Below are positions 27,855 to 45,726 of a DNA stretch of 64,000 nt, in pieces. The position numbers and the translations under genes are program-made. Each line of letters opens with the position of its first letter. Within the stretch, counting starts at the first letter, position 1. The stretch covers positions 7,192,001 to 7,256,000 of the forward strand of contig OX597829.1 of the NCBI GenBank assembly GCA_951406725.2. Direction: 5' to 3'. The notes below the pieces were generated by a model, which had not been told where the DNA came from, ran no database searches, and saw only the letters and a list, made by a program, of their open reading frames with translations. Source of the DNA: Octopus vulgaris (lineage: Eukaryota).

Positions 27855-29092
27855 CGAGGGGCGTTCAATAAGTAATGCCCCTAACCCACTTCCCATAGCA
27901 GTAGAGCAACGAAACTTGGAACAGTTATTAGTCTTTTTCTACATAGGAACCACCCAGAGTTACGCATTTCTCCCATCGTTTGATGCAGCTCTGAAGACCG
28001 TTTTTGTAGAAGACCCCAGCTTGGTCCTCCAACCACGACGTGACTTCAGAAATCAAGGCTGCATCATCTGGGAAACGCTTTCCTTTCAAAAACAACTTCA
28101 TGGCTGGGAAGAGGTGAAAATCAGAGGGATGAGTTCATAGCCGCACTCCTGTGCTTCTGATCTGGCGACACAGGAGTTGTGGATCGGAGCGTTGTCCTGC
28201 AAGAGGAGGATGCCTTTGCTGATCTTGCCCCGCCTCTTGATTTTGATAGCTTCTCTTAATTTCCTCAAAAGTGAAGCATAATAGACTCCTGTAATTGTGG
28301 CACCCTTTGCCAGGAAATCTGTCTTCACTACTCCGTCCTGGTCCCAGAAGACTGTAAGCATGACCTTGCCAGCGGAGGGCTGGACCCTTGCCTTCTTTGG
28401 AGGAGGTGAGTCACGGTGCTTCTACTGCATTGACTGGGCTTTGGTCTCTGGATCATAGTGATGGACCCAGGTTTCATCCTATGCAATCAGTCTTTTGAAA
28501 AATTTTGATTCATCGTCTCGGCACATCTCCAAATTCATCCTCGAGCAATCGACGCGTTCTTGCTTCTGGAAAGGTGTGAGCAACCTGGAAATCCATCTGG
28601 CAGACACCTTTTGCATATGCAAATGGTCATGAATGATAGTTTCCACAGACCCGGTACTAATCTTGACCTCATGGGCTATTTGGCGAATAGTTATGCGTCG
28701 ATCTTCCAAAATGGCAGCCTCAACTTGACAGACAGATGCCTCATCAATGGCAGAAGGGGGCGACCACATCTGGGAGCTGTTTCCACAGAGTTCCGACCAT
28801 GTTTGAATTCACGATGCCATCATTTTACAAGGTCATATGATGGGGCATCATAAGTTACTTTCATTTCATCAAAAGTCTCCCGTGGTGTGCGTCCTTTCAA
28901 ATACAAAAACCGTATCACTGCTCGACACTCAACATGCTCCATTTCACACTTGACTCAGTTCAAACACCTGTAAATCGGAAACCACAATTAGTTCAGAGCT
29001 GTAATTTGCCACTTAATCGATAGAGATATAAATGATTGCACATGCAAACAACTGCAAGTGGGTCAGAGGCATTACTTATTGAACGCCCCTCG
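27855..29092 (-). mobile_element. Full-length mariner with pseudogenised transposase
   Basis: TIRs CGAGGGGCGTTCAATAAGTAATGCC at both ends; DETWVHHYDP, WISRLLT, MLTVFWD and QDNA motifs with stops and frameshifts. Confidence 0.93.
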
Positions 29093-36742: not shown

Positions 36743-36838
<96 letters not shown>

Positions 36839-37015
36839 AAGAAAAATAAGAAGGTTAACAGCAGGCTGTTTCACCTCATACCGAAGGAATTAGAAATGGC
36901 AGTCAAAGACCGTTTTTCCAATTTCTATAAGTGGAGAATCCAAAAACGAAGGCCCTTACGGCTCACATACACAAAACCGGAGTGGCAAATATACGAATTC
37001 AGTCACTTACCGTTA

Positions 37016-37080
37016 ATAGCGGACATATGTTTCTGGATCGCAAACATGGAAATCAGTTTGAATTCCGTCATCGGCGCTAT
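37016..37080 (-). ncRNA. Type I hammerhead (H5, copy 1)
   Basis: Exact reverse complement of 37857-37921. Confidence 0.75.
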
Positions 37081-37564
37081 ATTCGATAGCTTTACTAAAT
37101 GCCACTAGCCCTCACTTCTGACCCAGCGACATCAGATAGTGGGGGGAAGAGTGCAGATGTTAAAACTAAGTGCCGACTGGGAACGTAAATTTTCCCTCCA
37201 AAATTCTGCCATGCGCGCTTTCTGGGTAATCGTAATGGAATGAGGAATCCACATGGTAATTCAATAAAAATGGTAAATAATTTTCCTGTGGTTTATCATG
37301 TAACCAACAATTATTTACCGGTAAATTTCGGTATGTAAATACGACAAATTAATTGTCAAGACCTTTGTAAGGTTCAGTATATAGTAAAGAAAAAATAAGA
37401 AGGTTAACAGCAGGCTGTTTCACCTCATACCGAAGGAATTAGAAATGGCAGTCAAAGACCGTTTTTCCAATTTCTGTAAGTGGAGAATCCAAAAACGAAG
37501 GCCCTTACGGCTCACATACACAAAACCGGAGTGGCAAATATACGAATTCAGTCACTTACCGTTA

Positions 37565-37629
37565 ATAGCGGACATATGTTTCTGGATCGCAAACATGGAA
37601 ATCAGTTTGAATTCCGTCATCGGCGCTAT
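37565..37629 (-). ncRNA. Type I hammerhead (H5, copy 2)
   Basis: Exact reverse complement of 37857-37921; 549 nt from copy 1. Confidence 0.75.
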
Positions 37630-37856
37630 ATTCGATAGCTTTACTAAATGCCACTATGTGGATTCCTCATTCTAAATGGCACTATGTGGATTCCTCATTC
37701 CATTACGATTACCCAGAAAGCGCGCATGGCAGAATTTTGGAGGGAAAATTTACGTTCCCAGTCGCCACTTAGTTTTAACATCTGCACTCTTCCCCCACTA
37801 TCTGATGTCGCTGGGTCAGAAGTGAGGGCAAGTGGCATTTAGTAAAGCTATCGAAT

Positions 37857-37921
37857 ATAGCGCCGATGACGGAATTCAAACTGATTTCCATGTTTGCGAT
37901 CCAGAAACATATGTCCGCTAT
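37857..37921 (+). ncRNA. Type I hammerhead (H5, copy 3)
   Basis: Stem I AUAGCG/CGCUAU; core CCGAUGA (U4C); stem II GGA/UCC plus CAAAC/GUUUG; GAAA; palindromic stem III ACAUAUGU; GUC cleavage after 37915. Confidence 0.75.
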
Positions 37922-38229
37922 TAACGGTAAGTGACTGAATTCGTATATTTGCCACTCCGGTTTTGTGTATGTGAGCCGTAAGGGCCTTCGTTTTTGGATT
38001 CTCCACTTATAGAAATTGGAAAAACGGTCTTTGACTGCCATTTCTAATTCCTTCGGTATGAGGTGAAACAGCCTGCTGTTAACCTTCTTATTTTTTCTTT
38101 ACTATATACTGAACCTTACAAAGGTCTTGACAATTAATTTGTCGTATTTACATACCGAAATTTACCGGTAAATAATTGTTGGTTACATGATAAACCACAG
38201 GAAAATTATTTACCATTTTTATTGAATTA

Positions 38230-38292
<63 letters not shown>

Positions 38293-38311
38293 GTATATAT
38301 ATATATATGTA

Positions 38312-38826
38312 TCTGTGTATCTAGTACATACTTCGCCTTTTAATGTACTTATATATGAATAATATATGGCCTGTGCTAGAACACCGGCGATAATAATTAA
38401 TTTTATTTTATCGCATTTTGACTTTGTTTACATATTTCTCGATAAATTTTGAGCGTTAGACTATATACCAGAAATCCCTAGTTTGACGGGTACGTTCTGC
38501 GTCTGCGCAGTGATCTGATTAGTAAGAAAGAACAAATTAGTAGACGCGCATGCGTCTATTGAGGTGCGATTTCAGAATAACAGGGATCTTACTGACGAGT
38601 CACCCTGAGTAAATAAATTATTTTTATTGCTGAAAAAGACGAAACTGCAGTATAAGATGAACCGAGTTAGTAAAAGTTTTTATTTTCATTTCACTAAATT
38701 TATCAAGCTTCTGTGTATCTAGTACATACTTCGCCTTTTAATGTACTTATATATGAATAATATATGGCCTGTGCTAGAACACCAGCGATAATAATTAATT
38801 TTATTTTATCGCATTTTGACTTTGTT

Positions 38827-38828
<2 letters not shown>
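38312..38828 (+). mobile_element. Retrozyme/pLTR-like element: 398-bp monomer with 119-bp terminal direct repeat, within (TA)n
   Basis: 38312-38430 repeats at 38710-38828 (1 mismatch seen); central canonical HHR. Confidence 0.85.
38586..38658 (+). ncRNA. Canonical type I hammerhead (H6)
   Basis: Stem I AUCUUA/UAAGAU; CUGACGA; stem II GUC/GAC with G10.1-C11.1; GAAA; palindromic stem III ACUGCAGU; GUA cleavage after 38652. Confidence 0.88.
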
Positions 38829-38858
<30 letters not shown>

Positions 38859-38874
38859 GATAGATAGATAGATG

Positions 38875-38946
<72 letters not shown>

Positions 38947-40737
38947 TGTTTCTTTATTAGCCACACAGGGCTGCACACAGACGGGAAAAATTACAAGGTA
39001 GAGCTTTTCATTATGGGGATAAAAAAAGGGGTTTTTGTTTTCGATCAAAAGGGATCGTAAGAGGAAAGAAAGAGGAAAGCAAAATAGGGGGGGGGGATAA
39101 AAATAAAGGGAAAAAGAAAAAATCGATCAATAGGGATCGTTATCACAGAAATGTCAATATAAGGTGTAAAGGGAAGGACAGGTGAGGTGGAAAGAAAAGC
39201 CTACGGAAAAGACCATGGTAACCTCGGTCAATGAAGTTACGTGTTATATTTTTTTTACAAATAAGCAACTCTCTGTATTAATTTTTACGGTTCATAGGAT
39301 CATAGACAAGGTGGCTTCGTCATTCATACGTGCCATCCTTGCTACATTCACCCATCTTTTTTTAAAAGATTCACTAAACAAAACTTGCCTCTCTACTCTC
39401 AATTTCCTCTTCAAGTGATACTTGAAGTTGATGAGAGATTGACCAGAGAGGAAAGTGGTTGTCTCTAATCCTTTCAGACGCGTCCACCAGATACATTCTT
39501 TCTCCATAGCCACAAGTATGATAAAAATAGCTCTTCCTTCCCGTTTGAAAAAAGGAGGCGTGACGATATTAACGATAGACTCGGCTGATAAACCGACACG
39601 TCCCACACGTGACAGCAGTCGTTCGATATAATCCCACAGGTCGGAGATTGTTGGACACTGCACGAGTGCGTGCAGAACGGTTTCGTCGCTCTGACCGCAT
39701 CTCGGGCAGGTCGGCCCCGTGTTTCTCGAGCCATGCCTATAGAGCTTATCCCGAACGGGTAACGCTTTCGGTAGCACTGCCAGGCAAGGGTTCTCTGGAA
39801 GTTGTTCATAGGTCCCGGCCCGAAAGTCGTCTCAAACAGGCGGGTCAGGTATTCCTCGTCGACGCCCAGATTCGCCCCAAGATCGTCGTCGTACCTCCCC
39901 TCCACTAATCCCCTATAGAATGCTTTGGTTGTGTTGAAGTCACCCAGGGTCGACCCGGGACGGCAGAGTTGCTTGAGAGCAACGCGACACTCGCGCTGCC
40001 ATTCGCTCTTCCTCGGCCTCTTTTTGATCCACGACTGCAGTTCTGTCATGGAGACGAGCTGCGGGAAAGCGTGCCTCACAAAGGACGACCACACCTGTTC
40101 ACCGTCGTCTACATAGAGCCTGAGATATCGCTGTCTCGGCGCGTGTCTGCGCATCATCAACCACGGCATGCTCAGCCCTCCTTTTAACGGGTGTTGACAG
40201 CAAATGGATCGTATGACCATCGGGACGCATCCTTTCCACAAGAAGCGGAAGAGAATGCGTTCTAGTTTGGTGATGGTAGGGTCGGGACAAGGTACGACGG
40301 TCAGGCGGTAGTAGATGATGGACGCGATGTACGTGTTTGCCACCTCCGCCCGACCTTTTAGAGACAGTTTCCTTTCGGCCCATTGCCGGACGAGAGTGAC
40401 CGCCCTACACGTTATCTTGTTCCAGTTCTTCTCCATTTGAAGGTGCGGACCGAACCAGATCCCGAGCAACTCAACCGTGCCAGCGTCCCACGACGGAGGT
40501 GCAGGTGGACGGCATGGGCTTGCTTCTCCAGGTGCTTGTTTCTCCAGGTGCCAAGCTGCAAGCCCACTGACTTTTCGCGGTTGATTTTCGCTCCTGTCAC
40601 CGCTTCGTAGTCTTTTAGTGTCTCGCTGACCAGCTCCATGTTCCCGTGGCTTGACACTATGACGGTGACGTCATCCGCGTATGCAGACACGCTCGTCCCG
40701 CATCCCAATTCTCGCGGGATGCCCCTCAGAGTCGCCA
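38947..40737 (-). mobile_element. Tx1/L1-clade LINE, 5'-truncated (RT C-terminal part + zf-RVT)
   Basis: [35 protein letters not shown] and CPRC..DETVLHAL..C motifs; 3' end abuts (GATA)n. Confidence 0.92.
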
Positions 40738-40742
40738 ATAGA

Positions 40743-40995
40743 TAAGTTTCTTTATTGGCCACACAGGGCTGCACACAGATGGGACAAGTTACAAGGTAGT
40801 GCTTTTCTTTTGGGGGATTAAAAAAACAAAAAAACAAAAAAACAATAGAAACAAAAAAAGGTGGCGTAGGTTTTCGATCAAAAGGGATCGTAAAAAGGAA
40901 AAAAAAAGAACAAAAAATAAAATTAAAAAAAGAAAAAAGGGAAAAAAGGAAAAGGAACAAAAGAAAAGAGAAATGAAAAAAAGAAGAAAAAGGGG

Positions 40996-40997
<2 letters not shown>
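40743..40997 (-). mobile_element. Tx1/L1-clade 3' UTR-only copy
   Basis: TTTCTTTATTGGCCACACAGGGCTGCACACAGA nearly identical to the other 3' ends. Confidence 0.8.
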
Positions 40998-41238
<241 letters not shown>

Positions 41239-41240
41239 TG

Positions 41241-43372
41241 ATATGTTTCTTTATTAGCCTCAGAGGGCTGCACAAAGACGGGACAGATTACAAAGTAGAG
41301 CTTTTTTTTATGGAGAGAAAAGGAAAAAAAGTGGGGTAGGTTTTCGATCAAAAGGGATCGCAAAAAGGAAAGAAAAAACGGAAAGAAAAGAAAAAACAGA
41401 AAAGGCAAAAAAACGATCAATAGGGATCGTGTATCACAGTGTCATGATGTAAAGTGTAAAGGATGAAGTAGATAGGGTTTATCCGTGGAAAGAAAAGCCT
41501 ATGTAAAACACCACGGTAACCTCGGTCAATAATGTCACATGTTACCACATTTGTTCGCAATTAGGTAACCCTCTGTTTTAATTTTTTCCGGGTTCATAGG
41601 ATTATGCTCAGGGTGGCTTCGTCATTCATACGTGCCATCCTTAGTACATTCACCAATCTTTTTTTTTAAAACATTCGCTAGACAAAACTTGCCTCTCTAC
41701 TCTCACTTTCCTTTTCAAGTGATACTTGAAGAAGTTGATGAGAGATTGACCAGAAAGGAAAGTGGTTGTCTCTAATCCTTTCAGACGCGGCCACCAGATA
41801 CACTCTTTCGCCATAGCCACAAGGATGATGAAAATAGCTCTTCCTTCCCGTTTGAAGGAAGGAGGCGTGACAATATTGGCGATAGACTCAGCTAATAAAC
41901 CGACTCGTCCCACACGTGACAGCAGTTTTTCGACATAAGCCCACAGGTCGGAAATTGTTGGACACTGCACGAGTGCGTGCAGAACTGTTTCGTCGCTCTG
42001 ACCGCATCTCGAGCAGGTCGGCCCCGTGTTTCTCGAGCCGTGTCTGTAGAGCTTATCCCGAACGGGTAGCGCTTCTCGGTAGTACTGCCAGGCCTGGGAT
42101 CCCTGGAAGTTATCCATGGACCCTGGACCGAAAGTCGACCTGAACAGGCGGGTCAGGTATTCCTCGTCGACGTCCAGGTTCGCCCAGAGCTCGTCGTCGT
42201 ACCTCCCCTCCACTAATCCCCTGTAGAATGCTTGGGTTGTGTTGAAGTCGCTCAAGGTCGACCCGGGACGGCATAGTTGCTTGAGAGCAACGCGACACTG
42301 GCGCTGCCATTCGCTCTTCCTCGGCCTCTTATTGTCCAGGATTGCAGCTCGGTCATGGAGACGAGTTGCGGGAAAGCGTGCTCACAAACGGCGACCACAC
42401 CTGTTCACCGTCGTCTACGTAGAGCCTGAGATGTCGCTGTCTCGGCGCGTGTCTGCGCATCATCAACCACGGCAATCCCAGTCCTCCTTTTAACGGGTGT
42501 TTGTAGCAAATAGATCGCCTGACCATCGGGACGCATCCTTTCCGCAAGAAGCGGAAGAGAATACGCTTCATTTTGGTGATGGTATGGTCGGAACAAGGTA
42601 CGACGGTCAGGCGATAGTAGATGATGAACGCGATGCATGTGTCCGCCACCTCCGCCCGATCTTTTAGGGACAGTTTTCCTGTCGGCTCCTCGCCGGGCGA
42701 GAGTTATCTCGTTCCAGTTCTTCCACATTTGGAGGTCCGGACCGAACCAGACCCCGAGCAACTCAACTGGACCGTCGGTCAAGCGTTCCACGACCGAAGC
42801 GTTGGTGGACGGCATGGGCTTGCTTCTCCAGGTGCCGAGCCGCAAGCCCACTGACTTTTCGTGGTTGATTTTCGCTCCTGCCAACGCTTCGTAGTTTTTC
42901 AGTGTCTCGCCGACCTGCTCGATGTGCTCGTGGCTAGATACTATGACGGTGACATCGTCCGCGTATGTAGATCGCTCGTCTCGCAACCCAATTCTCGCGT
43001 GATGCCCCTCAGAGACGCCAGCTTCCGCAGTAATGGCTTGAGAGTCAATACGTATAGAAGCAACGAGAGGGGGCATCCCTGACGAACCGAACGTGCAATG
43101 TCGAAAGGTCTCGATAGATGTCCATTTATGTGAATTACCGAACGGATACCTCTGTACAAAGCAGTTATCCAGCTGTGGAAGACGGGACCGAAGCCATCCG
43201 CTCTGAGGACAGCCTCCAAGTATCGATGGTCTATCTTATCGAAAGCTTTCGTTTGATCCAAATTGATCAGGGCCCCACCCATGCCAGGTTCGTTAACTAC
43301 CCTGTCTATGATGTAGCGCATCAGATGGAGGTTGTCATGGATGCTCCGGCACGGCACGGTGCACGTTTGCGA
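41241..43372 (-). mobile_element. Tx1/L1-clade LINE, 5'-truncated (RT + zf-RVT), frameshifted
   Basis: RSIHDN, LDQTKAFDKIDH, VRQGCPLS and TYADDVTV motifs; 3' end abuts (GA)/(GATA)n. Confidence 0.92.
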
Positions 43373-43411
<39 letters not shown>

Positions 43412-43447
43412 CCATAGAGGGTTGCATTTACAACCCCTATCTCAATT

Positions 43448-44165: not shown

Positions 44166-45726
<1,561 letters not shown>

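Follow-up and report, generated by a model that had tools for sequence, protein, structure and literature searches.

The window, i.e., the entire 64,000-nt stretch of Octopus vulgaris DNA analysed here, contains a two-armed element at about 36836–38230 that carries three type I hammerhead motifs. Its flanking DNA reads (AC)27(AT)17 on one side and (TA)40 on the other, with the target microsatellite at 36801–36835 on the left ((AT)n) and at 38232–38312 on the right ((TA)n). Positions within the repeated unit (q1–q548) were counted along 37684–38230 on the plus strand, q548 being one linking base. On the minus strand the element runs from q148 to q548 and then from q1 to q420, such that arm 1 (36836–37655) comprises 1.5 units: a 5′-truncated first unit (37255–37655, minus strand) and a second unit (36836–37254, minus strand) that ends at a fixed end, E1 (a U-rich stretch, then TATATA). 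Arm 2 (37684–38230, plus strand; q1–q547, 547 bp) stands head-to-head with arm 1 and ends at a second fixed end, E2; the ~124-nt “tail” between E1 and E2 (38104–38230, plus strand) is present at the outer end of this arm only. The inner (5′) ends of both arms are linked via a 28-bp duplication (37644–37700; inversion junction at 37656–37683), which the original prediction does not mention.

This anatomy agrees base for base with the original prediction of a 549-bp-period minus-strand array plus one inverted monomer, except that the “array” amounts to only 1.5 units and the outer end once placed at 36832 lies at about 36836. Both outer ends do enter (TA)n, and the copies are indeed near-identical: arm 2 (37684–38230) matches 37254–36830 of the minus strand at 99.1% identity (q1–425; 2 substitutions, 2 indels) and 37655–37256 at 99.75% (q148–547). 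The one extra base said to join the array copies is found at 37255, and the direct-repeat spacing in arm 1 is 549. The three hammerheads, read directly and backed by covariation (see below), start exactly where they had been placed, i.e., at 37629 (37565–37629, minus strand), 37080 (37016–37080, minus strand) and 37857 (37857–37921, plus strand), with predicted cuts at 37571/37570, 37022/37021 and 37915/37916, respectively. The two minus-strand cuts lie exactly 549 nt apart, as claimed, and would bound a monomer at 37022–37570 (minus strand); this cut-to-cut piece folds better than 100 of 100 shuffles (z = −3.6), and for the hammerhead motif alone the minimum-energy fold is not the active shape (z = −1.3).

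Six-frame translation of the unit (GC 39.5%) gave no frame with a known domain (Pfam blank), a 90-aa antisense frame likewise being without a Pfam match, and the unit has no LTR, PBS or PPT (the latter two judged from anatomy only). No Penelope-like element (PLE) protein match lies within the window. A bacterial promoter scan returned 5 sites where 8.1 were expected and is not relevant here. Right beside the element, a 136-bp direct repeat (95%) occupies 38312–38447 and 38710–38845, 398 bp apart, followed at 39292–43441 by several fragments of broken LINEs with RT and zinc-finger-like frames; their repeated ends, 88 bp each, lie at 38940 and 40738. Fragments at 28098–28808, 44436–44750 and 45153–45650 resemble Tc1/mariner transposases.

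Copies, arms and ends of the family

In the genome searched (2.8 Gb, 227 contigs; the window is on contig C16), a 22-mer from the unit matched exactly at 162 places (control, 0) and a search with the unit itself gave at least 123 matches (40 of 1144 candidates scored), so that the search for copy number called for at the outset reveals a multi-copy, dispersed family. We assembled 73 non-redundant loci from the best matches of the unit search and the first 100 listed places of the pattern searches, a sample that leans toward long, young copies; overlapping loci were removed before counting, as was one duplicate (L156, which shares an identical insertion and identical flanks with L155 on contigs C7 and C31, respectively, and marks a segmental or haplotypic duplicate). 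All 73 loci are non-coding, and most lie in (TA)n. Two arms are present at 45 of them, invariably head-to-head (45/45); arms reach 3.9 units in length, and at 21 of the 73 loci a single arm holds at least two complete hammerheads.

Outer and inner ends follow different rules. Outer ends cluster at two sites about 124 nt apart, E1 (q403–426) and E2 (q536–q4), and where both outer ends of a locus fall at these sites (35 loci) there is one of each in 34 and E1/E1 in 1 (binomial p = 2e-9); 10 further two-armed loci have at least one outer end elsewhere. Single-armed loci (n = 28) end at E1 (12), E2 (13) or elsewhere (3). Inner ends (n = 118) are spread round the unit, with 1 of 118 at the cut site q232/233, and inner junctions vary between loci, most showing 0–8-nt overlaps or short inserts. 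No arm among the 73 loci was found to end at the hammerhead cut site. An apparent pile-up of inner ends near it (10 of 118 within q228–246; nominal p = 0.008) was rejected, an equally rich window arising in 187 of 300 uniform simulations. The two ends of the inverted monomer had been read as meaningful termini, joined in the array; we find instead that its 3′ end is E2 at q536–548, that its 5′ end is one of the 118 scattered inner ends, and that neither coincides with q232/233. Because outer ends are fixed and inner ends scattered, what looks like a “monomer” in the window is no excised unit: one side is the E2 end and the other was truncated by chance. The element in the window is a young copy of a non-coding 549-bp retrozyme family.

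Each insertion appears to draw on one template. When units of the same young locus were compared at polymorphic sites, they disagreed in 18 of 1381 comparisons within an arm (1.3%) and in 21 of 1287 between arms (1.6%), against 12.4% between loci. Locus-private alleles were present in both arms in 12 cases and in one of several covering units only in 73; the shared private alleles have no A-to-G excess (4/14), and A-to-I edits fixed in the genome were not seen among private alleles. A homogeneous tandem donor would produce such haplotype sharing as well. Nesting was scored at 33 E1/E2 loci (one complex locus, L224, was left out of 34): one arm is nested in the other at 21 and neither is nested at 12, among them the locus in the window. 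Without nesting, these 12 loci cannot have arisen from a single cDNA that simply folded back. In general, then, a unit-length or circular RNA would be primed at two of its sites, with fold-back a rival for some loci.

Hammerhead core and sister families

Rfam reported no hammerhead at gathering or E-value thresholds, and the weak miRNA/snoRNA matches it returned are due to chance or to palindromes; the hammerhead call therefore rests on direct reading and covariation. Young copies have every core element (C3 U4 G5 A6 N7 G8 A9 … G12 A13 A14, NUH and stems I–III) except U4. Thus the type I motif with CCGAUGA is present as originally described, but its core is non-canonical: U4C, a C10.1–A11.1 mismatch closing stem II, and a stem III of 2 bp only. 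In the 99 complete copies compared, the canonical core goes with GUU and belongs to older subfamilies, while young ones have U4C, mostly with GUC. Stem III passes from a three-base loop in older copies to two different perfect palindromes, switching between subfamilies from ACACGUGU to ACAUAUGU. In vitro, U4C is reported to lower activity considerably, yet it is tolerated in a viroid (PMC3088659), and U4C and the C–A mismatch together argue for slow self-cleavage of young copies. Predicted retrozyme dimers from Xenopus gave no in vitro cleavage in 8 of 9 cases (10.64898/2026.07.22.740005).

Two sister families, F2 (616-bp unit) and F3 (557-bp unit), share 60–67% identity with the 549-bp unit all the way round. 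F2 (67%) forms arrays of up to 9 units and ends at the homologous two sites. Its core is canonical, and that of F3 is a U3–A8 variant; C3U/G8A is a known natural hammerhead variant (PMC3088659). When 7 units from the three related families (549, 616 and 557 bp) were aligned, RNAalifold returned, unprompted, a three-way hammerhead junction set in a long rod, with E1 and E2 left unpaired. Six of 15 hammerhead pairs changed on both sides, including 4 of 6 in stem I across the three families, and the covariation score was reached by 0 of 500 shuffles (with 7 related sequences, this is not a probability); slid controls were 27–39% paired versus 96% for the true register. Covariation across the three families supports a conserved hammerhead fold; it is evidence of conservation and not of rate.

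The relatives have features of their own. F2 (L081–L110 and L225–L228; e.g., G000:C4:46546065-46551749; 1541 first-look candidates) has a long AT-rich stem II loop and arrays at 99% identity, some of 7–9 units, and loose ends with its sequence are present in the probably-RNA runs described below. F3 (L231–L250) gave 1805 first-look candidates, and a fourth, older relative (L251–L265; 2568 first-look candidates) consists mostly of short head-to-head insertions.

Penelope-like elements and a closed unitig in sequencing runs

PLE searches scored 150 candidates each of 6136, 17871 and 8831; the GIY-YIG search alone (150 of 6136) recovered many PLE copies. In one family (family A) the intact ORFs are 781 aa long, carry DKG and a CX4CxxC linker, and match RVT_1 and GIY-YIG in Pfam; the family is Neptune-like by the motifs described in PMC8557442. 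In a second lineage the intact ORFs are of 899 aa, with DKT, CxxC and CxH but neither CCHH nor a Pfam match; judged from motifs alone, this lineage fits the Hydra description in PMC8557442 and is probably Hydra-like. Copies of both are young (median divergence 0.7% for Hydra-like, 0.9% for Neptune-like), and both insert in (TA)n with one arm tailed and the other untailed. Tails measure ~35 nt in Neptune-like elements, ~150 nt in Hydra-like elements and ~124 nt in the 549-bp family. Since the Hydra-like tail is ~150 nt rather than ~35 nt, we favour a Hydra-like partner somewhat, while a Neptune-like one would remain a substantial candidate.

Sequence homology names no clear partner among the autonomous copies examined. 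Specifically, blastn of the unit against the Neptune-like and Hydra-like copies fetched gave no match, and a weak likeness to an older Hydra-like tail (equalled in 6 of 300 and 9 of 1000 shuffles, among 9 comparisons each) is lost once the number of comparisons is considered and is absent in the sister families. A Neptune-like family also has a U4C hammerhead core. Stem III palindromes match between the 549-bp family and Hydra-like PLEs, a likeness not used as evidence because few such palindromes are possible. Neither the window nor the family insertions contain an ORF with RT and GIY-YIG, and the linkage of the unit to such an ORF that had been envisaged was not found: across 78 family regions, PLE protein matches lie apart from the insertions. 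Read from its 5′ truncation, tandem plus inverted copies, one-end tail and microsatellite target, the 549-bp family is best described as a non-autonomous retrozyme that is likely mobilised by a PLE. The two labels first offered as alternatives (retrozyme or non-autonomous Penelope) were both right and are here one and the same, given the family anatomy, its ends and this PLE footprint.

Several traits of the PLEs stand apart from the question of partnership. The young Hydra-like element (L266–L282; e.g., G000:C1:119513000-119529000) occurs as full-length ~3.6-kb tandem copies with a hammerhead in the 3′ UTR. The young Neptune-like element (L061–L070) is preceded by an ORF1-like region, its 3′ UTR is repetitive, and it has a divergent motif resembling a hammerhead, the core being U3–A8. 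An older Hydra-like family (L229, L230, L161–L190) has an asparagine/serine-rich linker between RT and endonuclease that recalls the N-rich inserts of rotifer Penelope elements (PMC3846280).

Eight of 24 listed sequencing runs, none of them recorded as RNA, were analysed: seven “probably-RNA” runs (RNA status guessed) and X18, which is genome-sized and was read to 76%. In four of the seven (X2, X3, X4 and X11, representing three study codes and two organism labels) the unit forms one 579-nt unitig with a joint that goes back 549, at depths of 217, 107, 197 and 31, respectively. A closed loop of 31-mers would be expected to give this length (549 + 30). The remaining runs differ: the family breaks into 566 fragments in X18, X1 and X13 contain both of the marker alleles defined below in pieces, and X12 has low-depth mixed fragments without them. 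Together with within-locus haplotype sharing, the closed unitig supports the unit-length template that had been proposed, insofar as the run type was guessed correctly. A closed unitig is not proof of a circle, as any transcript of two or more identical units gives one too. None of X2, X3, X4 and X11 has a flank branch at the unitig's own depth, although contigs drop rare branches. A flank appearing as a loose end in X1 proved to be a common dispersed repeat end (171 matches), with 0 of 30 fetched copies adjoining the family.

Six of the seven probably-RNA runs (four study codes) share a dominant haplotype with two marker alleles, at q293 and q306, that were never seen together in the assembly. 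Neither allele is an A-to-G change, and neither occurs in the genomic unit copies compared (0 of 127 and 0 of 132) or in X18; exact genome-wide patterns found each once, alone, on an older background. The two copies concerned (L286 and L290) were rejected as the source, being older-background copies with one allele each. The expressed haplotype is constant in runs of 2015, 2019 and 2022 and lies 2 changes from the youngest genomic haplotype; three runs of the same species label contain next to none of the unit sequence (from the search listing). Since the expressed sequence did not change over these years, its simplest and likelier source is a master locus that is polymorphic or missing from the assembly. 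The copy in the window is not the main expressed haplotype; it could in principle release one monomer.

Proposed mobilisation of the unit and competing explanations

Taken as a whole, the data are probably best explained by a non-coding hammerhead retrozyme, likely mobilised in trans by a PLE through two-site copying of its unit RNA. Tandem transcripts would self-cut, probably as dimers through the palindromic stem III, to give 549-nt monomers that would likely be ligated into circles. A resident PLE enzyme would then nick both strands of the (TA)n target, and the same RNA would be copied from two fixed, U/A-rich sites predicted to be single-stranded (E1 and E2), leaving two back-to-back arms of any length. 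Of these steps, we infer cleavage, ligation to a circle, and priming at both ends.

Possible, but rather unlikely in our judgement, is that an uncut or slowly cut linear multimer from a homogeneous master array serves as the PLE template, with the second arm made by fold-back on the first cDNA. The weakened hammerhead core, the compatibility of the closed unitig with a tandem transcript, the F2 arrays of 7–9 units, and the 21 of 33 nested loci, read with the self-priming model in PMC3846280, would all suit such a route, whereas the 12 loci that are not nested do not. Further, every new subfamily allele is common to all units of an array, so that a one-unit bottleneck is needed; stem I covaries across three families; and the unitig in X2, X3, X4 and X11 comes without a flank branch at its own depth (rare branches being dropped). 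We give little weight to the unit being the pLTR or 3′ end of an autonomous PLE outside the sample: its architecture is that of a PLE pLTR (PMC8557442) and the PLE searches scored a fraction of the candidates (150 each of 6136, 17871 and 8831), but all multi-unit loci join head to tail without an ORF, PLE protein matches lie apart from the insertions in the 78 family regions, three sister families are homologous round the entire unit, and the 90-aa antisense frame has no Pfam match. That the inversion or tandem is an assembly artefact, a refutation foreseen from the start, is scarcely credible. The exact inversion junction of the window locus is absent from, and so unbridged in, every sequencing run analysed, but an artefact is unlikely given the same head-to-head build at 45 of 73 family loci, with the same fixed ends, arms that differ by private changes, and junctions that vary from locus to locus.

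The expression data raise a further alternative that we regard as very improbable, namely a circle that maintains itself by viroid-like RNA-to-RNA copying, with genomic copies as PLE-pasted side products. It would account for a dominant haplotype in 6 of 7 runs whose two alleles were missing from the genomic copies compared (0 of 127 and 0 of 132; genome-wide, each single, alone and on an older background) and from X18, and for three runs of the same species label nearly without the unit; mussel circles, too, lacked a matching genomic entry as reported in PMC7229834. Nevertheless, the sequence is the same in 2015, 2019 and 2022, unlike an error-prone RNA swarm, the haplotype is 2 changes from the youngest genomic one, and one assembly plus one simplified contig set read to 76% leave room for a master locus. 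A bolder combination is a long shot: that in some animals the 549-nt RNA persists as a viroid-like circle with no DNA master, and that the young Hydra-type Penelope enzyme endogenises it by starting copies at both fixed points simultaneously.

The retrozyme reading bears on two open questions, i.e., how animal retrozymes return to DNA and how the tandem-plus-inverted, one-tailed insertions of Penelope elements originate. The 549-bp family makes both testable, offering a 549-nt template, two mapped sites of presumed priming and young, intact candidate enzymes, with three sister families to mark conserved RNA structure. One highly represented probably-RNA species with two marker alleles is traceable between the DNA and RNA of one animal; should no DNA source exist for the alleles, the species would count as a viroid-like RNA of animals, and, were that reading true, the genome would be a dated record of a replicating non-coding RNA. 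That the retrozyme class is already known limits the surprise.

Earlier work has described non-LTR retrozymes, and proposed that PLEs mobilise them through circles, in metazoans generally (Cervera and de la Pena, 2020; PMC7229834) and in vertebrates (Li, Clavereau, Pollet, 2026; 10.64898/2026.07.22.740005). As described in PMC7229834, the metazoan elements resemble ours in being dispersed, multi-copy, non-coding tandem units with one type I hammerhead each, GC below 50%, a stable fold, PLEs alongside, a short dimer-suited stem III and, as in axolotl HHR_Amex2, a mismatch at the base of stem II. They differ in unit length (150–450 bp versus 549 bp) and in expression, a mixed population there against one dominant haplotype here (our loop coming from contigs only), and our arrays are, unlike theirs, short and two-armed; the words “inverted,” “octopus” and “cephalop” are absent from the main text of that paper. 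The vertebrate elements (10.64898/2026.07.22.740005) share the class and the proposed PLE partner, and their range of 51–972 bp includes 549 bp; there the PLE link is co-occurrence and pLTR homology, whereas here it is the insertion ends with no clear pLTR homology, and the sample described includes no mollusc. Tandem copies, an inverted copy and a tail are the usual make-up of PLE insertions (Arkhipova et al., 2013, PMC3846280, which favours self-priming; Craig et al., 2021, PMC8557442): as reported there, EN+ elements of the Hydra and Neptune clades share 5′ truncation, partial tandems, a head-to-head inverted copy, a one-end tail, a (TA)n target and a hammerhead near the 3′ end, and differ from the 549-bp family in having an ORF and a tail of 30–40 nt rather than ~124 nt. 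Plant LTR retrozymes, for which RNA-to-RNA replication is reported, are likewise hammerhead-processed non-coding retroelement RNAs (PMC9695139), but their type III hammerhead, LTR/PBS/PPT and Gypsy partner have no counterpart in the 549-bp family. Our literature search, with most subscription papers outside its reach, turned up neither a retrozyme from a cephalopod nor retrozymes with coupled two-site ends. The main text and one supplement of the octopus repeat annotation (PMC13282606) do not use the terms “ribozyme,” “hammerhead” or “retrozyme”; that annotation lists 31 recently active Penelope-like families, and its octopus consensus library may contain the 549-bp family.
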